Below are positions 2,826-51,366 of a stretch of 64,000 bases of DNA, in pieces. Numbering within the stretch: the stretch's first letter is position 1; every line of letters starts with the position of its first letter. The position numbers were made by a program, and so were the translations under genes. Source of the DNA: an uncultured Lachnospiraceae bacterium (GTDB taxonomy: Bacteria; Bacillota; Clostridia; Lachnospirales; Lachnospiraceae); NCBI GenBank assembly GCA_964579795.1, contig CAZOHM010000012.1:244-64243 (forward strand), read 5' to 3'. The notes under the pieces were generated by a model. It was not told where the DNA came from. It made no database searches and worked only from the letters and a program-made list of their open reading frames with translations.

Positions 2826-4316
2826 CTATTCCATCGGTATTCTGATTACAACTTCTGTTCCTTTATTTTCACCTTCGCTCATAATTGCGAATACATCATC
2901 TCTTCCATAACATAGCTTCAATCTGGATATTACATTATTAAGACCGATTCCATTGGAATCCGGAGAGTCATTGACAGATTCCGTTTCCTGCATGCGGATT
3001 TTTCTCAAGACCTCTTCAGATATTCCTATCCCGTTATCTCTTACACAAATACATACCACATCATTCTCACGATACACTGACAGTGAAATCAATCCCTCCC
3101 ATTCAATTCCTCTGATACCATAATTTACACTGTTTTCCACTATTGGCTGTAAAATCATACTTGGAATTCGTGTTGTGAGCAATGACTCATCAATCTTCTT
3201 TTCAAAATGAATCGTGCCAGAAAAGCGCACATTCAAAATATATATATAGCTGTCAACCAGCTCAATTTCTTCAGCAATAGAAACATTATCATGATTCTTT
3301 TTTACATTATACCGGAAAAAATCAGCCATGTTCTGTACATACCTGTTTGTTTTATCTGCCCCTTCCATCATTGCAAGCTGTGCACCTGCATTAAGCGTAT
3401 TAAACAGAAAATGCGGATTAATCTGAGCCTGCAGATATTTCAGCTTTGCATCCTTTAAATGCGCCGCAAGCATAAGCTCTTTTTCCTTCATAGCACTTTC
3501 CATTTCCATTCTTTCTCTAATCTGGTCAATATATTCTCGAATACTGATAAGCATCTGATTAAACGCAATTGTCACAACACCAACCTCGTCTGTAGATTTC
3601 GTTTCCAACAGTTCAACATCCAAATGTCCTTTTGCAACCTCATTCGCTCTTTTAGACAACTCTTTGAGCGGGTTCGTAATTGATCTGGTCACGAAAATAA
3701 TCAAAAGTGTATTTCCCAAAGTAACTGCAACAAGAATTGACATACAGAGAATTTCTGAATACTTCAGTGATGTAAGAAGTGTTTCGTAGTTTGTAGAATT
3801 TCTCTTGAACTGTTCATTGTTAAGACTATAAATATATGTACTAATATAAGAAAACAGCTTTGTTGCTTCCCCATAACCACTAATATACTTTTCTGTATTT
3901 CTTCCGCGCTTCGCCTGCACTGTTTCATCTGTAATTACCAGATAGGTTTCCGACATGTTACGAATACTTTTTTCCATCAGCTTCATGTCATTATCCGTTG
4001 TAATTACGTTCAGCTCTGCCAATTGTGTTGAATAGTCCTGTACACTTTTATAATACAATCCAAGCGCATCCGTACTTTTTGTTTTTAAATAATCGGTCAT
4101 GCTGTTCTGTACACTTTCCAGCGTTTCAGACATGTCATTTAAATTGACATTGCTAATGTATATCTCGTCAATTTTTCCAATCATCTGATTCAGACTATAG
4201 TATACGTACAAATTAACCCCAAAAATGATAATGGAGGTGAAAATAAATACACAGATTAGCTTCGTCTGAATTGTGAAATTTCGAATTGTCTTTTTACTCC
4301 TCATCTTTATCTTCAC
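2826..4316 (-). CDS. Sensor histidine kinase, LytS/YesM type (2 TM, HAMP, His_kinase, HATPase)
   Basis: Contains the QINPHFLFNTLN H-box typical of the LytS/YesM family and a C-terminal GIGLNNV ATPase motif. Has an N-terminal TM and a second TM before a HAMP-like segment. Overlaps the upstream gene by 23 nt. Confidence 0.9.
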   Translation of the reverse strand: MKIKMRSKKTIRNFTIQTKLICVFIFTSIIIFGVNLYVYYSLNQMIGKIDEIYISNVNLNDMSETLESVQNSMTDYLKTKSTDALGLYYKSVQDYSTQLAELNVITTDNDMKLMEKSIRNMSETYLVITDETVQAKRGRNTEKYISGYGEATKLFSYISTYIYSLNNEQFKRNSTNYETLLTSLKYSEILCMSILVAVTLGNTLLIIFVTRSITNPLKELSKRANEVAKGHLDVELLETKSTDEVGVVTIAFNQMLISIREYIDQIRERMEMESAMKEKELMLAAHLKDAKLKYLQAQINPHFLFNTLNAGAQLAMMEGADKTNRYVQNMADFFRYNVKKNHDNVSIAEEIELVDSYIYILNVRFSGTIHFEKKIDESLLTTRIPSMILQPIVENSVNYGIRGIEWEGLISLSVYRENDVVCICVRDNGIGISEEVLRKIRMQETESVNDSPDSNGIGLNNVISRLKLCYGRDDVFAIMSEGENKGTEVVIRIPME

Positions 4317-5346
4317 TCCTCAGATATTTCTTTACATTATCAGCATTAATCAACGTAAAATCTACCGAGTAATAATCGCTTACATGACCGGTATTCACAT
4401 ATTCATTCAGTGCTTCCACGCAGTATCTCCCCATCTGCTCAGTATTTACAGTAATCGTTGCAAAAATAACGTTTCTCTCAACTGCGCGTAGGATTGTATC
4501 AGAATCATAATATCCGATAATTGCTGTTTGCCCAACCTTATTCTGATCTACAACCATCTGATATACACTTGTGGTATTTAATTCATTCAGACAGACTACA
4601 ACATCCGGATGATATTGTTCAAATACGTCACGAATAGACTCTTCCGCACTAAATGGACTGTCATTACTGATCTTGGCAATTTTCATATCTACCTTATCCT
4701 TGTCCAGCTGCTCATTTTCCAGTTCATCCTGTATGGCGGAATAAATAATATTCTGAGACGGATCAGAAGAGTTGGAATCCATTAAAAGTAATACCTGACA
4801 AATGCCCTTTGTATCGGCAGCCACACTGGAAATCAGTTTTCCATATTCACTTCCGAGATTATAATTACTGATTCCGACATAACTTACTCGCGGTGTTCCC
4901 ATACAGTCATGCAATATTGTAACAACAGGGATCCCCTTTGCATTTGCTTTGTTAATCAAAGCTGTCGTTTTGTCACTCTCGTCTGCCTCAAGAATAATTC
5001 CGTCAACATTTGAATCAATTGCAATTTCCATAAGATCTGCCTTAGAAAATTCCACAGAAAGATTCTTCCCAAGACGTTCAACATAAACACCTGATTTTTC
5101 GCCTGTTTCAACCATCTGGTCATAGACAGTATCCCAAAAAGTATCACCAATATCCTTTGTTATCAAAACATACTGGCGCTCATATTCATTATACTGCTCA
5201 TTTGGCAGCTTGCTGTCTGATATTCTCCACTGAAAATAAATCAGACCAAATAAAGTAACAAGTAGCATAATAACCGTCACTATAGCGAGTATGAAGGCAT
5301 CTATTTTTTCTCTTTTAGAAAAGCAACTCTTCCTGTTTTTCTCCAT
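4294..5346 (-). CDS. Membrane-anchored periplasmic-binding-protein-like sugar sensor partner (no lipobox)
   Basis: 350-aa ORF with one N-terminal TM helix followed by a PBP1-like sugar-binding domain. It sits directly upstream of, and overlaps, the kinase gene. Confidence 0.7.
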   Translation of the reverse strand: MEKNRKSCFSKREKIDAFILAIVTVIMLLVTLFGLIYFQWRISDSKLPNEQYNEYERQYVLITKDIGDTFWDTVYDQMVETGEKSGVYVERLGKNLSVEFSKADLMEIAIDSNVDGIILEADESDKTTALINKANAKGIPVVTILHDCMGTPRVSYVGISNYNLGSEYGKLISSVAADTKGICQVLLLMDSNSSDPSQNIIYSAIQDELENEQLDKDKVDMKIAKISNDSPFSAEESIRDVFEQYHPDVVVCLNELNTTSVYQMVVDQNKVGQTAIIGYYDSDTILRAVERNVIFATITVNTEQMGRYCVEALNEYVNTGHVSDYYSVDFTLINADNVKKYLRSEDKDEE

Positions 5347-5370
5347 GTATAATTTCCTCGGATTATTCTA

Positions 5371-14464: not shown

Positions 14465-14902
14465 TTACTTGATTTCAATTAATTTCTTTTCTTCCACCTT
14501 GGGAACTGCTTCCTTTTTAGGAATTTCTAGCTTCAGAATACCGTTTTCAAAGTTTGCCTTAATATCTGACTCGGTTACTCCCTCTCCTACATAAAAGCTT
14601 CTGGAGCATTGACCGGTATAGCGTTCGCGTCTGATATAGTCTCCCTTTTTATTTTTTTCATCCTTACTTTCCGAATGAGAAGCAGAAATCGTTAAGTAAC
14701 CATCTTTCAACTCTGCCTGCAAATCCTCCTTCTTGAATCCCGGAAGTTCCAAATCTACCTGGTATCCATCCTCAAATTCCTGAACGTCAGCATTCATTCC
14801 CATTGTTCGCTTTCCTTTCTGTTCATATCCAAATGGTGAGAATACCATGTCATTGAAAAAATCATCTACAAAATTGTCTCTAAAAATACTTGGTGCTAAC
14901 AT
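14465..14902 (-). CDS. Small heat-shock protein, Hsp20/alpha-crystallin family
   Basis: 145 aa. Alpha-crystallin core (DVQEFEDGYQVDLELPGFKKEDL ... GILKLEIPK). GAAGGAGG RBS. Confidence 0.9.
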   Translation of the reverse strand: MLAPSIFRDNFVDDFFNDMVFSPFGYEQKGKRTMGMNADVQEFEDGYQVDLELPGFKKEDLQAELKDGYLTISASHSESKDEKNKKGDYIRRERYTGQCSRSFYVGEGVTESDIKANFENGILKLEIPKKEAVPKVEEKKLIEIK

Positions 14903-21068: not shown

Positions 21069-21293
21069 TTATTCAAAATCATCGGGTTTCTTTTCAAATG
21101 CTGACTCTGCCAGCTCAACAAATGAGTTTTGACGTGGTATCGCAATTCCCTTTTTTTCATCGCCCAGTACAATAATGGTATCTCCCGGATGAATATCAAA
21201 GATGTCTCGTGCTTCCTTCGGAATCACAAACTGACCTTTCTCACCTATTTTCACTGTCCAGGCATATTTCCCTTTCAAAGACGCCTTTGGCAT
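21069..21293 (-). CDS. AbrB/MazE/SpoVT-family DNA-binding protein
   Basis: SpoVT-AbrB looped-hinge motif GQFVIPKEARDIFDIHPGDTIIV. ATG at 21293 lies 7 nt after GGAGG. Confidence 0.75.
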   Translation of the reverse strand: MPKASLKGKYAWTVKIGEKGQFVIPKEARDIFDIHPGDTIIVLGDEKKGIAIPRQNSFVELAESAFEKKPDDFE

Positions 21294-21348
21294 GCTGTAT
21301 CCTCCTGTCATTGACCAATGTATGATTTGTATAACTCGTGTAACATCT

Positions 21349-21377
21349 ATTCTATTTTCTTTTCACATACTTGTCAA
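21349..21377 (-). promoter_or_regulatory. Sigma-A promoter in front of the AbrB-like gene
   Basis: Minus strand TTGACA(21377-21372)-17 nt-TAGAAT(21354-21349), immediately after the stop of the second ArsA-like gene. Confidence 0.6.
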
Positions 21378-21387
21378 CACACAGCAT

Positions 21388-22548
21388 CTATTGTTTGGCA
21401 TAATTGATAACAAGATAACCCTGCTCAAATTTTGCCCCCTCTGTTTCCATTCCAACAAACTCCTTTGGAAGCTGAAATCGGCGTACCTCATTCTTCACTT
21501 TAATTACCAGCTCCTTTTCTACCTGTTCGAGTTTCATTTCCTCTTTATTTGCAAACGGAAGATATATCCTGATTAATGCATGCTCATAATCAATTTCATA
21601 TAAAGTCTCTTTAAACAGAACCTCATTCGGATCTGTATCACCATACAGACTGCTTCCTATTTCCGATAATACATCAACTGTACGCAGCTCTTTTTTTTGA
21701 AGCTCTACATAAAAGCAAGGCACCTCGCTGAAGCATTCTCTTATTTCGTTCAGTCCTTTCTCCTGCATCTGCAGCCATTTACTGAAATATCCTTGCATTG
21801 CTTCATTCGGATAAATCCTGTTAACAATAATTGCATCGACATTATAATTATATAAATACAAACATGTAAAATTACGCTTTGCTTCACTGATTACAATCTT
21901 TTCAGGCGTTGTTACAACACGCAGACTGACAATATCCTTGTTCAGCATAAGCTTCTGTAATCGTCCCATTTTATCCATCAGTGTCTCTACATCATCAAAG
22001 ATATCATCCTTTGGCATAGGTATTTTCATAGTTTTTTCTACAATGGGTCCTGCTACCTTGACACCCATACGTTTGATTGGAAGCACCTTTTCCATAAAAC
22101 CAGACAGCTTTTCCGGATATTTCAACAGTGACAGCGTTTCACCTGTTGGCGCACAGTCCACAATCAGCGTATCATAATCTCCGCTTTCATATTCATCCAG
22201 TATCCGGAACATGGAAAACAGTTCTTCAAGTCCCGGAAACACCAATAGCTCTTCAACTTCAATTCCACCGTCCTGCCGAACCGTCAAAAGCTGTTTGAAA
22301 TAATCCTTTAACTTTCCCCAGCTCTTTTCACTTTCATATACAGTATCAATTTCCAATGCAGAAAGATTATCACAGATTTTCTGCGGTTCCTTACCAAGCT
22401 TACAGTCAAATGAATCTCCAAGAGAATGCGCCTGATCTGTACTCATAATTAATACGCGTTTTCCGCTTTTTGCTATTTCCAGTGCACTTGCGGCTGCCAT
22501 ACTGGTTTTACCTACTCCACCTTTTCCTGTATAAATAATGATTCTCAT
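21388..22548 (-). CDS. ArsA/Get3(TRC40)-family ATPase with C-terminal HSP20-like domain, paralog 2
   Basis: Deviant Walker A GKGGVGKT, STDQAHSLGD, DCAPTGETLSLL. The C-terminal beta-rich segment (IRIYLPFANKEEMKLEQVEKELVIKVKNEVRRFQLP) is alpha-crystallin-like. ATG at 22548 lies 8 nt after GGAGG. Confidence 0.85.
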   Translation of the reverse strand: MRIIIYTGKGGVGKTSMAAASALEIAKSGKRVLIMSTDQAHSLGDSFDCKLGKEPQKICDNLSALEIDTVYESEKSWGKLKDYFKQLLTVRQDGGIEVEELLVFPGLEELFSMFRILDEYESGDYDTLIVDCAPTGETLSLLKYPEKLSGFMEKVLPIKRMGVKVAGPIVEKTMKIPMPKDDIFDDVETLMDKMGRLQKLMLNKDIVSLRVVTTPEKIVISEAKRNFTCLYLYNYNVDAIIVNRIYPNEAMQGYFSKWLQMQEKGLNEIRECFSEVPCFYVELQKKELRTVDVLSEIGSSLYGDTDPNEVLFKETLYEIDYEHALIRIYLPFANKEEMKLEQVEKELVIKVKNEVRRFQLPKEFVGMETEGAKFEQGYLVINYAKQ

Positions 22549-22565
22549 CACAATATCCTCCATTC

Positions 22566-22814
22566 TTATAAAATATCTACTTTTTTGGCATGACTCTTTT
22601 CTCTGTTCTTTTCTTTGTTTTCTTCTTCGTCCGTATCAAAGCTGCCGTTTCCTTGTTCCATAACCATTTCCATTACTGACTCCATAAACATCGCCTTTAT
22701 TTCCTTCTCTATTACATCCAGATGTTCACTCATTTCCTCTGGAAACAAGGCACGAAGTGCTTTTCTCTGATATCTGCCGGCTATTTTCATTCTCTTCATC
22801 ATTTCTTTATTCAT
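22566..22814 (-). CDS. Small Met-rich protein of unknown function between the two ArsA-like genes
   Basis: 82 aa from ATG 22814, which overlaps the upstream TAA stop (ATGAATAA). 10 Met in 82 residues, including MFMESVMEMVME. Basic N-terminus and acidic/charged tail. Confidence 0.55.
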   Translation of the reverse strand: MNKEMMKRMKIAGRYQRKALRALFPEEMSEHLDVIEKEIKAMFMESVMEMVMEQGNGSFDTDEEENKEKNREKSHAKKVDIL

Positions 22815-23979
22815 GGCTGCTCCTTTCGAATTGAATGCCAAGTACTCCATCTGTAAGTTTTGCTCCTGTTATAGAATAGCTTCTAAGTACATTTGGCAAT
22901 GGAATATTTCTTTTATAATTATTAATCTTAATTACAACATCTGTTGTCGACTGAAACAGATCAAGATTCTCTTTATCTACAAATGGTACCGGCACTTCAA
23001 GCAAATAGCCTTTTTCATTCTGTGTAAATACTTCTCTTTGTGTAATGGAATTTATTTGAAATACGATATCTCCCTGTAATGCATCCTTTATCATACGCTC
23101 AATTGCTTCTTTTCCCTTTAATTCCTCGTCATACCACGGAATCTCATATATCGGAAGTGCTGCAAAGCTTTCCTTAATTTCCTTTATATATTTTTTCTGA
23201 ATCAGCAGCCATTGTGAAAAAAACTTATTTTCAATATCTTTTGGTAATATTCTGTTTATATAAATTCCGTCAACATTGAAATTATAAAGATTCATATACA
23301 TAAAATTACGTTTTGTTTCTTCAACAACCATTTTCTCCGGTGTTGTTACTATTCGTACACTTGTTGTTTCTCTGTCCTTAAATAAGTTCTGCAGTTCCGA
23401 TAGCTTTACATACATCTTTTCAATATCATTCATAGCTGTTTTGTTTGGTAGCTCCACCTTGAATGCAGCCTTAGATATAGGGGAAAGCAGCCTAACTGCA
23501 ACCTTTCCGATAGGAAACAGCTTTTCCATATACCATGACAGCAGCTCCGGAAACTTCAGTAACGAAAGCGTTTCACCTGTTGGTGCACAATCTACAAAAA
23601 TTCTATCGTATGTTCCTTCATTTTGAATATCTGCTATTTTTAATAAGGAAAACAGTTCTTCCATTCCGGGCATCATACCCATATCGCTTAAATCGTCACC
23701 CTCTGTTTGAGGAAGCATTTTCGTCAAACAATCAAGCATACTCTGGTAATCCTGCTGCATAACATATTCCGGATCTATTTCATATGCATCCAAATTTGTT
23801 AAAATATTCTTTGGCTCTTTTCCTAAAATCATGCCAAATATGTCACCAAGATTATGTGCCATATCTGTGCTGACAAGCAGTGTACGTTTTCCCTCCTGGG
23901 CACTTTTTATTGCATGAGCTGTTGCCACGCTGCTTTTCCCTACTCCGCCTTTTCCGGTAAAAATATAAATTCTGCTCAT
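22807..23979 (-). CDS. ArsA/Get3(TRC40)-family ATPase with C-terminal HSP20-like domain, paralog 1
   Basis: GKGGVGKS, STDMAHNLGD, DCAPTGETLSLL, and the Met-rich loop DMGMMPGMEELF. C-terminal LLEVPVPFVDKENLDLFQSTTDVVIKINNYKRNIPLP is alpha-crystallin-like. Has an RBS (GAGGAAAAGG). Confidence 0.85.
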   Translation of the reverse strand: MSRIYIFTGKGGVGKSSVATAHAIKSAQEGKRTLLVSTDMAHNLGDIFGMILGKEPKNILTNLDAYEIDPEYVMQQDYQSMLDCLTKMLPQTEGDDLSDMGMMPGMEELFSLLKIADIQNEGTYDRIFVDCAPTGETLSLLKFPELLSWYMEKLFPIGKVAVRLLSPISKAAFKVELPNKTAMNDIEKMYVKLSELQNLFKDRETTSVRIVTTPEKMVVEETKRNFMYMNLYNFNVDGIYINRILPKDIENKFFSQWLLIQKKYIKEIKESFAALPIYEIPWYDEELKGKEAIERMIKDALQGDIVFQINSITQREVFTQNEKGYLLEVPVPFVDKENLDLFQSTTDVVIKINNYKRNIPLPNVLRSYSITGAKLTDGVLGIQFERSSHE

Positions 23980-24029
23980 ATCCTTTTCCTCTTTTCTTTC
24001 TATAAATTCATTTTTAATTTCATTGTGCG

Positions 24030-24052
24030 AATATTTCGATTTCCGAAGTATT
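24030..24052. promoter_or_regulatory. Inverted repeat AATATTTCG-N5-CGAAGTATT upstream of ArsA-like paralog 1 (candidate MarR operator)
   Basis: Read directly. It has the same half-site and 5-nt spacing as the palindrome at 24599-24617. Confidence 0.55.
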
Positions 24053-24099
24053 TGTTCAATGAAAAGACAGCCTTTAAAACTGCCCTTTCAATACTACAC

Positions 24100-24597
24100 T
24101 TATTCAATTGTAATCCTTCGCACCTTTTTTTGAAGTACATCCTTCTTATGCTCTTTTTTAAGTACGTCCATCACCTTATTCATCATTCGATAAAATATGT
24201 CCATCTCTTCCTTAGAAAATGAAGTCAATATCTGTACTCCATAATATGTCAGCTCCTCAACAAGAGCCTGAACCTGCGCCTTCCCCTTCTCATTGAGCTT
24301 GACTGTAACCACCCGCTTGTCCTCAGGAGATCTGAACCTCAACACGAGCTCATTCTTTTCCATGCGGGCAATTACTCCGGTAGCCGTGTTGAGCGGCACA
24401 TGAATATACTCTGCAATCTCGGACATATTCACTTCTTCCCTTCGGTACAAAAGCCAAAGTACAAGCACCTCATTCTTGGAGCAGTTCAGTAGAATGTTTT
24501 CCCACATTTGTGGTGAGAGTAGATCCTTTATCTCATCTATGAACTGATAAATATCCTTTTTCATATTCTGTTCGTCAATCATTATCTCTGTCTCCAT
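24100..24597 (-). CDS. MarR-family transcriptional regulator
   Basis: Winged-HTH core NMSEIAEYIHVPLNTATGVIARMEKNELVLRFRSPEDKRVVTVKLNEKG. ATG at 24597 is preferred over the track's TTG at 24651. Confidence 0.85.
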   Translation of the reverse strand: METEIMIDEQNMKKDIYQFIDEIKDLLSPQMWENILLNCSKNEVLVLWLLYRREEVNMSEIAEYIHVPLNTATGVIARMEKNELVLRFRSPEDKRVVTVKLNEKGKAQVQALVEELTYYGVQILTSFSKEEMDIFYRMMNKVMDVLKKEHKKDVLQKKVRRITIE

Positions 24598-24598
24598 A

Positions 24599-24617
24599 TA
24601 CTTCGTCCTTCGAAGTA
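24599..24617. promoter_or_regulatory. Perfect palindrome TACTTCG-N5-CGAAGTA abutting the MarR start codon (candidate auto-operator)
   Basis: Read directly. A further CCGAAGTATTT copy lies at 24632-24642. Confidence 0.6.
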
Positions 24618-24735
24618 ATTTAATTCTATCACCGAAGTATTTTTGTGTCAAGTATTTTTTTTCCTAATTTTATATCATCAAACAATCGCGCAAACCCACC
24701 TGCATAACAGGTAAATTTTAAATAATATCCTTACC

Positions 24736-33901: not shown

Positions 33902-34366
33902 ATGAACACAAAAGGCGGATTTTATATTTCACAGATTAAACAGCTGCAGGATAGAATCTTTGATAAGCTACTGAATGATCACGGGTTACAGATCAGTGGA
34001 GGACAGGGAAGAATTTTGTTTATCCTGTGGAAGCAGGATCATCAGACAGTCAGCGACATCAGTGCAGCGACATCACTTGCCAAAAATACCGTTTCCATTG
34101 TTCTTGACGGTATGGTAGCAAAGGGCATTGTCAAAAGGCAAATCAATCCGAACAACCGTCGTCAGACAATCATCTCCCTGACCGATTATGCCAGAACCAT
34201 GCAAAAGGAATACGAGGATATTTCCAATCAGATGGGTGAGCTTTTCTATGCCGGATTTTCCGACAAGGATATCAAAGCATTCGAAGCATATTTAGAGAGA
34301 ATTCTATCCACACTACAGCAAAATGAAAAAGGAGACAATTATGGCAACGAAAGAGGAAATTTTTAA
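33902..34366 (+). CDS. MarR-family transcriptional regulator
   Basis: 154 aa. wHTH core VSDISAATSLAKNTVSIVLDGMVAKGIVKRQINPNNRRQTIISLT. Confidence 0.85.
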   Translation: MNTKGGFYISQIKQLQDRIFDKLLNDHGLQISGGQGRILFILWKQDHQTVSDISAATSLAKNTVSIVLDGMVAKGIVKRQINPNNRRQTIISLTDYARTMQKEYEDISNQMGELFYAGFSDKDIKAFEAYLERILSTLQQNEKGDNYGNERGNF

Positions 34367-34757
34367 CTTTATTAAAAAGCAAAAAACAGCATTTATTGCA
34401 TCCGTAGACAGCGATGGCTTCCCTAATTTGAAAGCAATGAATATGCCACGCAAAATTGAAGGAAATGATTTTTACTTTTCCACAAATACCTCTTCTATGC
34501 GTGTTGCACAGTATCGTGAGAATCCAAAAGCAAGCATTTACTTTTATAACAAGGGACGGTTTCGCTATGAAGGAGTCGGTCTTGTTGGCACAATGGAAGT
34601 AATGGAGGATCAGGAAATCAAAAGTGCCTGCTGGGAGACAGGGGATAAGATGTATTATCCAAAGGGTGTTACAGATCCTGATTATTGTATATTAAAATTT
34701 ACAGCTGTAAAGGGCAGACGCTATTGCAGTTTCAAAAAAGAAGATATCATTTTTTAG
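34341..34757 (+). CDS. Pyridoxamine 5'-phosphate oxidase-family (FMN-binding split-barrel) protein
   Basis: ATKEEIFNFIKKQKTAFIASVDSDGFPNLKAM is a typical PNPOx-like N-terminus. ATG at 34341 follows AAGGAG. Overlaps the MarR 3' end. Confidence 0.8.
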   Translation: MATKEEIFNFIKKQKTAFIASVDSDGFPNLKAMNMPRKIEGNDFYFSTNTSSMRVAQYRENPKASIYFYNKGRFRYEGVGLVGTMEVMEDQEIKSACWETGDKMYYPKGVTDPDYCILKFTAVKGRRYCSFKKEDIIF

Positions 34758-50925: not shown

Positions 50926-51366
50926 CTATTCCTCACTTATCAGATATTTCTGAAGATTTCTTGAAATTTGAAGCAATGCTTTGTAAAAAGCGATTCTCTC
51001 GCTTTCTGACAGCTTTTCGCTCCCCGCAACAACTGCTTTTTCGACGATTTTACTGATTCTAATACTGACTTTCTGTCCTGCTTCTGTCAGCTTGACAGGT
51101 GCACGGTATTTCTGTGTGTTTTCAATCACTGCATATCCTCTTTGTGATAATTCTGCTACAGTCCTTGAAATTGCCGCCTTGTCCTCATCACATAGCTCAC
51201 TCAGCTCTGTCACTGTCAAGCCGTCTGGATGCTTGGCCATATGATATAAGCACATCAAATAGGAACCCTTCAAATCCAATTCTTCCATTTCACGTTTTTT
51301 AATACGATGCAGGTTTCTGTAAATCTGATTAATCGTTGTTACAAACAACTCAAATCTATCTTTCAT
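50926..51366 (-). CDS. MarR-family transcriptional regulator
   Basis: 146 aa. wHTH LTVTELSELCDEDKAAISRTVAELSQRGYAV. AAGGAG RBS. Confidence 0.88.
   Translation of the reverse strand: MKDRFELFVTTINQIYRNLHRIKKREMEELDLKGSYLMCLYHMAKHPDGLTVTELSELCDEDKAAISRTVAELSQRGYAVIENTQKYRAPVKLTEAGQKVSIRISKIVEKAVVAGSEKLSESERIAFYKALLQISRNLQKYLISEE

Follow-up and report, generated by a model that had tools for sequence, protein, structure and literature searches.

A conserved MarR-linked cassette of two crystallin-bearing Get3-like ATPases and a small protein in Lachnospiraceae, with IxI-type tails on the repressor and on the small protein

Gene content and conservation of the cassette

We analysed a stretch of 64,000 nt from an uncultured Lachnospiraceae bacterium (assembly GCA_964579795.1, contig CAZOHM010000012.1), hereafter the window. 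It contains a cassette of four genes, all on the minus strand, in which marR lies upstream of ATPase 1, a small open reading frame (ORF) and ATPase 2. An earlier reading of this DNA, made without database searches and called the sequence-only reading below, had proposed a heterodimeric Get3-like module under MarR control with a Met-rich adaptor or client-mimic as the third component; every sequence detail that it gave was correct, the start of MarR aside. Our own analysis suggests, with a confidence that we put at about even, that the cassette encodes a Get3d-like ATPase, repressed by MarR and acting as a chaperone or in targeting, with crystallin domains that may dock the C-terminal tails of a partner protein and of its own repressor. 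The following features were located (window coordinates).

21388..22548, minus strand: ATPase 2, 386 aa from ATG 22548, Get3/TRC40-type with an alpha-crystallin-type domain
21403..21576, minus strand: alpha-crystallin-type domain of ATPase 2 (Pfam ArsA_HSP20 over residues 330-387 of the 391-aa ORF)
22566..22814, minus strand: small partner protein, 82 aa, consisting of a helical hairpin, a disordered acidic/basic linker and a C-terminal tail
22569..22586, minus strand: codons of the small-protein tail KKVDIL
22807..23979, minus strand: ATPase 1, 390 aa, Get3/TRC40-type with a C-terminal alpha-crystallin-type domain
22822..23028, minus strand: alpha-crystallin-type domain of ATPase 1 (residues 318-386), seven strands in the AlphaFold2 model
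24018..24064: operator of the ATPase-operon promoter, a 47-bp imperfect palindrome with its core at 24032-24053, TATTTCGATTTCCGAAGTATTT (repeat D1, inverted repeat I1)
24060..24090, minus strand: terminator-like hairpin after marR (RNA fold -15.7 kcal/mol, z = -3.97), followed by UUUUC
24100..24597, minus strand: marR, start at ATG 24597 or ATG 24582 (160 aa from the latter), stop at 24100-24102
24103..24123, minus strand: codons of the MarR tail VRRITIE (IxI motif and one further residue)
24599..24642: operators of the marR promoter, a pair of neighbouring copies at 24621-24642 and 24599-24620 (repeat D1, inverted repeat I3)
24623..24651, minus strand: marR promoter, TTGACA, 17 nt, TAGAAT, with TG before the -10 box (11/12 consensus positions)

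A genome scan with a profile of the small protein returned 41 loci, nearly all from Lachnospiraceae, plus one from Terrisporobacter and one from an unclassified member of the Bacillota. Wherever the contig extended far enough, the small gene lay between orthologues of ATPase 1 (64-76% identical to the window protein) and ATPase 2 (65-74%) in the same order (41/41 loci), and a MarR orthologue was found directly upstream and on the same strand in each of the 37 loci with upstream DNA. The arrangement of ATPase, small ORF, ATPase and MarR that the sequence-only reading had singled out is therefore conserved between genomes. The same four genes were found in Agathobacter and in Anaerocolumna xylanovorans, and the cassette was also present on contigs carrying very divergent representatives of the small protein. 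Outside the cassette the neighbours differ from locus to locus; apart from MarR, none is conserved. The cassette is a conserved four-gene unit of gut Firmicutes, made up of a repressor, two Get3-like ATPases and a tiny partner. That the operon is real and controlled by MarR is close to certain.

The two ATPases

Both ATPases matched Pfam ArsA_ATPase (1.1e-80 for ATPase 1 and 1.5e-81 for ATPase 2) and passed the NCBIfam model TIGR00345 for the TRC40/GET3/ArsA subfamily (251.5 and 245.6 bits; cut-off 135). The two proteins are 40% identical to each other. ATPase 1 has GKGGVGKS at residue 9, STDMAHNLGD at 37, DMGMMPGM at 99 and DCAPTGETLSLL at 130, while ATPase 2 has GKGGVGKT, STDQAHSLGD and an identical DCAPTGETLSLL; the Walker A, STD(M/Q)AH(N/S)LGD and common switch II motifs previously read from the translations were thus verified in both. 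The P-loop, the switch I Asp, switch II and an A-loop-like ...E-L-(K/R)-G/T segment are present in both paralogues and are invariant or nearly so among their orthologues. DCAPTGE, with Glu where DTAPTGH has His, is a signature of the family. The CxxC zinc-binding dimerisation motif occurs in neither paralogue. The longest ORF of ATPase 2 begins at 22563 (391 aa), but its orthologues begin MRI(I/L)IYTGKGGVGKT and ATG 22548 has GGAGG 8 nt upstream; ATG 22548 is most likely the start.

Among solved structures, the closest by sequence were archaeal Get3/TRC40 (3zq6 at 1e-45, and 3ug6) and Chlamydomonas ARSA1; Get3d (3igf/8egk, 5e-17) and mycobacterial BagAB (6bs3, 1.6e-6) were more distant. The AlphaFold2 model of ATPase 1 (mean predicted local distance difference test score, pLDDT, 79.8; predicted TM-score, pTM, 0.82) has a Get3 fold followed by a seven-strand C-terminal domain. 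It contains helices in the putative client-binding region and two low-confidence segments at 92-102 and 154-177, and across residues 95-205 the alignment to 3zq6 has gaps of one to three residues only. Foldseek paired the ATPase domain of the model with 3zq6 and the full length, crystallin domain included, with 8egk, 3igf and 8elf.

The HSP20/alpha-crystallin-like C-termini noticed in the sequence-only reading were borne out by the seven strands of the ATPase 1 model and by Pfam ArsA_HSP20 (PF17886), which matched ATPase 1 at 1.6e-21 and ATPase 2 at 2.7e-16. Hallmarks of small heat-shock proteins (sHSPs) occur in these domains as ...F/Y-x-R-x-x-x-L-P... and A-x-x-x-x-G-V/Y-L, corresponding to ...YKRNIPLP... 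and AKLTDGVL in ATPase 1 and to ...VRRFQLP... and AKFEQGYL in ATPase 2. ATPase 2 ends three residues past its last strand. To judge from sequence and model, the ATPases are Get3d-like in architecture, with an ATPase domain that is archaeal-Get3-like and apparently active. A heterodimer of ATPase 1 and ATPase 2 is plausible, given the constant pairing of their genes and a fold that is dimeric by nature.

The small partner protein

The ATG of the small ORF overlaps the TAA of ATPase 1 (ATGAATAA), and 17 nt, with GGAGG inside, separate its stop from the ATG of ATPase 2. We found 92 close homologues, and an exhaustive profile search gave 227 representative clusters (50% identity), all of them stand-alone proteins of 39-150 aa; no natural fusion was seen among these 227 representatives. 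Over 47 loci, the entropy of the three codon positions was 0.80, 0.56 and 1.33 bits. The third position is the most variable, which indicates that the ORF behaves as a translated gene. The comparative evidence thus shows the small ORF to be a genuine, conserved and, by its overlapping start, translationally coupled gene, as the sequence-only reading had supposed.

AlphaFold2 predicted helices at residues 3-23 and 26-54 of the small protein and disorder at residues 58-82. In the close family, the conserved hairpin residues are charged or small (R8, A12, Y15, K18, A19, H31, D33, E36 and E38), and the linker is variable. The protein had no match in Pfam, its model had no Foldseek match in the PDB, and the family profile found nothing among PDB sequences even at E = 10. 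A Pfam scan of 26 family members returned scattered chance matches only.

The window protein has 10 Met in 82 residues and an amphipathic second helix. Internal Met, however, amounts to 12% in this protein as against a family median of 5.5% (range 0-14%), and the Met-rich stretch MFMESVMEMVME is specific to this genome; most homologues have Ala/Leu/Glu-rich sequence in its place. The features conserved throughout the family are the charged helical hairpin and the ...KKV-x-I-x tail, and Met-richness is not a family trait. The description of the small protein as a Met-rich adaptor or client-mimic therefore finds no support in the family.

The MarR repressor, its promoters and operators

The product of marR matched Pfam MarR at 1.9e-15. 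Its start had been placed at TTG 24651, but this TTG belongs to the -35 box of the TTGACA-17-TAGAAT promoter, and translation starts at 24597 or 24582. The promoter, with an operator in its spacer, was also found in most orthologous loci and in Agathobacter. The window has three copies of a 22-nt operator element, of which two lie in the marR promoter and the third precedes ATPase 1. The copy at 24599-24620 is a perfect palindrome, TACTTCG-N5-CGAAGTA, over the likely transcription start.

Over the orthologous loci, the marR promoter has the consensus TTGACA-N4-AATACTTCGG-N3-TAGAAT-TAAAT-TACTTCGAA-N5-GAAGTA and the spacer between marR and the ATPase gene has the consensus AAATACTTCG-N6-GAAnTATTCG-N6-GAAGT. 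Operator half-sites (TAyTTCG) were present upstream of marR in 35 of 37 loci and in the marR-ATPase spacer in all 37, while by our estimate chance would produce them in about one locus in ten. Agathobacter has the same operator arrangement. None of 200 shuffled sequences was as stable as the hairpin after marR, and analogous hairpins were recognized, by eye only, in Agathobacter and B. thuringiensis.

One operator in the promoter spacer and another over the transcription start form a repressor-type arrangement, which argues for MarR control with autoregulation. Control of the ATPase operon by MarR, autoregulation included, is well supported by the sequence on these grounds: an orthologue lies upstream in 37/37 loci, and the same operator stands in both promoters across genera, with a related form in Bacillus. 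In this respect the evidence agrees with the sequence-only reading.

Cys34 of MarR (window 24481-24483; LNCSKNE, at the start of helix 2) is conserved in at least 90% of the Lachnospiraceae orthologues.

C-terminal tails of the small protein and MarR

The small protein ends in [VIL]-x-[IVL]-x in 141 of 148 diverse representatives and in 89 of the 92 close homologues. Its tail, mostly (K/R)K-V-(D/T/N/E)-I-x, was present in all 47 loci examined. All 38 MarR orthologues end in [VIL][RK][KR]I-x-I-[ED] (or in -L, at one locus) after a variable, Lys/Glu-rich linker. A profile-profile comparison (hhalign) between the small-protein and MarR families gave an alignment confined to their 14 C-terminal residues, tail to tail; on this ground we rejected a derivation of the small protein from the 3' end of marR.

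The tail pattern was found in 3 of 307 long ORF segments of the window, two of which are the small protein and MarR. It was absent from the two other MarR paralogues of the window and from both ATPases; orthologues of ATPase 1 carry it in 0/120 cases and have acidic C-termini, ...EKGxxxxDE. In their sequence, both tails match the format of the C-terminal IxI anchor of prokaryotic sHSPs; MjHSP16.5 (1shs) ends ...SSIKKGINIE, and Salmonella AgsA (4zja) has ...KPKKIAI. The likeness to the anchors of MjHSP16.5, AgsA and Hsp27 (with the IPV motif of BAG3) lies in basic residues, [IV]-x-[IV], none or one further residue and a flexible extension. They differ in that the motif of the cassette is carried by a repressor and a stand-alone small protein while the crystallin domain is part of an ATPase, with binding as the inferred step. 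In sHSPs, the IxI motif docks on a neighbouring crystallin domain, in its beta4/beta8 groove. In human Hsp27, competing IxI/V ligands, among them a co-chaperone and a client, occupy this groove (PMC6212398).

The window also contains a canonical HSP20 gene at 14465..14902 (minus strand; Pfam HSP20 9.4e-22), at a distance of about 6.5 kb from the cassette. The encoded protein has the C-terminus ...EEKKLIEIK, in the format of the MarR and small-protein tails, and could be an alternative receptor or a competitor.

More distant cassettes

More distant versions were obtained by translated search of plasmid records and mis-labelled chromosome records. In the Bacillus cereus group (B. thuringiensis, Bacillus sp. 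N5-665 and B. anthracis), MarR is followed by a single ATPase and a DUF3926 protein (PF13080), beside gatCAB and a methionine ABC transporter (positions 3442-5366 of locus L049, 2266-4192 of L050 and 2937-4860 of L051). The MarR protein is 31% identical to that of the window and ends ...KMKNIPIE or ...NISIE. The ATPase combines ArsA_ATPase with ArsA_HSP20, has DCAPTGETL and is 41-44% identical to the two ATPases of the window. The DUF3926 protein has 63 aa, its start overlaps the ATPase stop by 8 nt and it ends ...LK(S/N)IIIE; this tail was found in 114 of 120 members of the DUF3926 family. The Bacillus promoters contain palindromes with the related half-site TATT(T/A)CGA.

The Bacillus cassette thus resembles that of the window in gene order, in the 8-nt overlap, in a crystallin-bearing ATPase with DCAPTGETL and in I-x-I-E tails on both MarR and the small protein. 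It differs in having one ATPase instead of two and a small protein of 63 aa that is not detectably homologous. Homology of the small protein to DUF3926 was considered and rejected (hhalign E = 0.2 for the alignment; a single-sequence comparison was not significant either, and the 26 family members scanned had no Pfam match). The parallel therefore rests on position, size, coupling and tail. Our literature search on DUF3926 returned nothing, and searches on ArsA in Lachnospiraceae and on the arsenical pump-driving ATPase of B. cereus gave nothing of relevance.

In Nonomuraea gerenzanensis (L052, 3038-6129), the gene for a crystallin-bearing ATPase of ArsA type comes after that for an SRPBCC protein and is followed by genes for a DUF5304 protein and a ROK glucokinase-like product. 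The DUF5304 protein (145 aa) has CxxCxxC, DRRD repeats and a long charged linker, and ends ...VEHIDLN. This ending is a first hint that such tails may accompany the architecture outside Firmicutes too. We take this region to resemble the SCO2127-glkA region of Streptomyces, in which SCO2127 may be a DUF5304 protein.

Fusobacterium vincentii (L048, 4001-6354) has a crystallin-bearing ATPase pair encoded by overlapping genes. This pair either acts without partners or has them encoded at another place in the genome. The pair stands between lutB/lutC-like and glcD-like genes, names that are our reading of the translations.

Proposed mechanism and rival explanations

We propose the following model, in which the region is a self-contained proteostasis cassette. 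The strong marR promoter with its two operators, the hairpin terminator and a second, operator-bearing promoter region before ATPase 1, the small ORF and ATPase 2 would place the whole cassette under MarR. ATPase 1 and ATPase 2 would pair as a heterodimer, comparable to ArsA with its two halves, and this dimer may handle hydrophobic or unfolded protein segments, as Get3 does. The small protein and the MarR dimer would place their IxI tails in the beta4/beta8 grooves of the two crystallin domains, so that transcription of the operon would depend on the occupancy or conformational state of the ATPase that it encodes. The small protein, expressed together with the ATPases, would serve as a competing or regulatory ligand. 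We put the docking of tails to crystallin domains at about even probability. The full switch is more tentative, and we rate it somewhat below even: in it, the crystallin domains would be docking modules for sHSP-type tails, one of them on the cassette's own MarR, the ATPase would capture or release the repressor according to client or nucleotide state, and the small protein would be the competing ligand.

Chaperone-titrated feedback on repressors is known from HspR-DnaK and HrcA-GroEL. The cassette would follow this logic, with the chaperone binding the repressor of its own operon; the repressor family, the chaperone and the interface differ, and for the cassette the link is hypothetical.

Several observations weigh against the proposed docking and feedback. 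Short C-terminal motifs may have other receptors or roles. The Fusobacterium vincentii pair has no small ORF between its genes and no MarR upstream, and since it stands alone, crystallin domains do not strictly need these partners nearby. Homology between the small protein and DUF3926 is not demonstrable (hhalign E = 0.2). The MarR Cys of Lachnospiraceae is not kept in Bacillus, where Leu takes its place, and a redox-sensing role of this residue is therefore doubtful. Finally, the crystallin domain of Get3d packs onto the ATPase dimer in the structures (PMC10248533), which may bear on access to its groove.

We consider it unlikely that the tails serve something other than the ATPases, that is, that they dock elsewhere (on a canonical sHSP), act as C-terminal degrons or, in MarR, contact DNA, with the small protein regulating the ATPase through its hairpin only, as Get4 or the cytosolic domains of Get1/Get2 regulate Get3. 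The canonical HSP20 protein of the window, which has a standard crystallin domain and itself carries an IEI tail, could be such a receptor, and the basic character of the tails fits DNA or electrostatic contact. The invariant charged hairpin residues R8, K18, H31, D33, E36 and E38 suggest a second interface, and the Fusobacterium ATPase pair has no tail-bearing genes alongside. However, the tail-bearing genes are linked to crystallin-bearing ATPases, whereas several unrelated genes lie in the 6.5 kb between the cassette and HSP20, and the flanks vary. The B. cereus group likewise combines tails with a crystallin-bearing ATPase. Apart from the tail, the small protein and MarR are unrelated, and two unrelated proteins with only a tail in common argue for one common receptor in the same operon. 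A function in handling a hydrophobic small molecule or lipid, with MarR sensing a membrane-active or lipophilic compound that the ATPase chamber sequesters or delivers, seems improbable, as it leaves the tails unexplained and no conserved transporter or enzyme lies beside the cassette. It would agree with the general tendency of MarR-family regulators to answer lipophilic or phenolic ligands and with the SRPBCC lipid-binding-fold protein that adjoins the Nonomuraea relative. A closed hydrophobic chamber of purified AtGet3d, moreover, held a lipid-like ligand of ~750 Da, although the authors of that study regard the lipid as possibly adventitious (PMC10248533).

The proposal of the sequence-only reading, in which the Met-rich small protein would be an adaptor or client-mimic in the hydrophobic client groove of a heterodimeric Get3-like chaperone, is quite improbable in our assessment. 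The 10 Met in the amphipathic second helix region of the window protein do speak for it, as does the Met-rich loop DMGMMPGM of ATPase 1, where the aligned region of archaeal TRC40 is Met-rich too. But the Met content is not conserved, in most homologues MFMESVMEMVME gives way to sequence rich in Ala, Leu and Glu, nothing in the small protein resembles a transmembrane segment, and the positions that are conserved are charged residues and the C-terminal tail. An arsenite/antimonite resistance ATPase (ArsA), as implied by the automatic annotation 'arsenite-transporting ATPase', is extremely improbable, even though the Pfam family is named ArsA_ATPase and homologues are so named in some sources. 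The equivalog for arsenical pump-driving ATPases (TIGR04291) gave 120 and 106 bits against a cut-off of 650. ArsA is a fused tandem of ~580 aa, whereas the cassette has two separate half-size genes (390 and 386 aa), and DCAPTGE stands in place of the DTAPTGH of ArsA. ATPase 1 has Cys at 84 and 131 only, one of them in switch II. ATPase 2 has Cys at 49, 59, 132, 229, 272 and 278, and the sole Cys that is both invariant among orthologues and common to the paralogues is that of DCAPTGE. These positions, together with a motif check, confirm that the metalloid-binding Cys residues of ArsA and the CxxC of Get3 are missing. No ars family was found among the 20 window ORFs compatible in size with ArsR, ArsC, ArsD or ArsB (the window was not annotated exhaustively), nor any ars gene in the annotated neighbourhoods of homologues elsewhere. 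On the missing Cys motifs and, within that coverage, the missing ars genes, and in assigning the ATPases to the Get3/TRC40 type (TIGR00345 was passed, the arsenical-pump equivalog far from reached), the sequence-only reading agrees with our results. In the neighbourhoods examined, homologous pairs were not embedded in ars operons. The label 'arsenite-transporting ATPase' is very likely wrong.

Relation to known Get3-type systems

The ATPase type itself is already known: Pfam ArsA_HSP20 is defined, and Get3d has been solved. For Get3d we used Arabidopsis At1g26090 (PDB 8elf) and Nostoc All4481 (PDB 3igf/8egk), with the NCBIfam model NosAFP (NF050088). Get3d and the cassette ATPases share the Get3/ArsA fold with a C-terminal alpha-crystallin domain (ArsA_HSP20) and the lack of CxxC (PMC10248533), and the ATPase 1 model aligned to NosGet3d over its full length (393 columns, TM-score 0.68). 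Get3d is, however, a single homodimeric protein, whereas the cassette has two paralogous genes, and the ATPase domain of the cassette is in sequence much nearer to archaeal Get3 (1e-45) than to NosGet3d (5e-17). The NosAFP equivalog gave 142.7 and 145.7 bits and its cut-off of 325 was not reached. The active sites of At and Nos Get3d are degenerate (PMC10248533), while the cassette paralogues keep their motifs. The cassette hosts are non-photosynthetic, and the ATPase genes are set with a MarR and a small protein that bear IxI tails.

In Get3d, the crystallin domain occupies the place where Get4 binds Get3, and its role is stated as unclear (PMC10248533). The same study ties the crystallin-bearing Get3 architecture to photosynthesis. 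The sequence-only reading had likewise described such proteins as mainly photosynthetic; this matches the literature (PMC10248533) but not the occurrences reported here in Lachnospiraceae, Bacillus, Fusobacterium and Nonomuraea.

Archaeal Get3/TRC40 (M. thermautotrophicus 3zq6 and M. jannaschii 3ug6) is the best match of the ATPase domain in sequence and fold (31% identity), and the alignment is unbroken through the helical client-binding region, including the Met-rich loop. In contrast to the cassette, it has no crystallin domain, paralogue pair, MarR or small partner, and its switch II is DTAPTGH instead of DCAPTGE. M. tuberculosis BagA/BagB (Rv3679/Rv3680; PDB 6bs3-6bs5) resemble the cassette as two adjacent bacterial genes for Get3/ArsA-like ATPases. 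Their equivalogs (NF053622 and NF053621), however, gave 38-53 bits against cut-offs of 400 and 521, and the PDB match was weak (E = 1.6e-6) and covered the N-terminal part only. BagA and BagB reportedly interact and protect against glycerol and nitric oxide stress. To our knowledge, no small ORF or MarR has been noted for that system.

The Get3d study (PMC10248533) was the only published work on crystallin-bearing Get3 proteins that we found. In the literature that we searched, we found no description of the pairing of the two paralogues, of their constant linkage to a MarR and a small partner, of the conserved operator, of the IxI-type tails on repressor and partner or of the Bacillus version with DUF3926. 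Our findings extend the Get3d-type architecture to strict gut anaerobes, the B. cereus group including B. anthracis, Fusobacterium and an actinomycete. The conserved partner tails in Lachnospiraceae and Bacillus give a concrete hypothesis for the role of the crystallin domain. If true, the hypothesis would add a new chaperone-feedback transcription switch and explain what the crystallin domain of Get3d-type proteins does. The genetic tractability of Bacillus cereus puts the hypothesis within reach of experiment. The cassette is present in abundant human gut commensals, e.g. Agathobacter, and as an uncharacterised stress module it is of practical interest.

Neighbouring genes and minor observations

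Against the PADLOC defence library, the region gave generic P-loop and winged-helix matches only, and Rfam gave no match in the region. Beside the cassette lies an AbrB/MazE-fold gene (window 21069-21377, minus strand; 80 aa; AbrB-family domain 2.4e-11), which has its own TTGACA-17-TAGAAT promoter at 21377-21349. This gene was absent from beside the cassette at every other locus compared and is not part of the unit; its link to the module had already been called weak in the sequence-only reading.

P0100, a 596-aa protein that represents 193 member sequences and comes from a 2425-base metagenome contig, begins with 270 N-terminal residues of an ATPase 1 orthologue and continues as an ATPase 2 orthologue, entered at about residue 60. 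This hybrid of the two paralogues arose by recombination or in assembly; it is not a small-protein fusion.

The window contains two more MarR-family genes, at 33902-34366 (plus strand) and 50926-51366 (minus strand). The former overlaps a pyridoxamine-phosphate-oxidase-like gene (34323-34757) by 44 nt.

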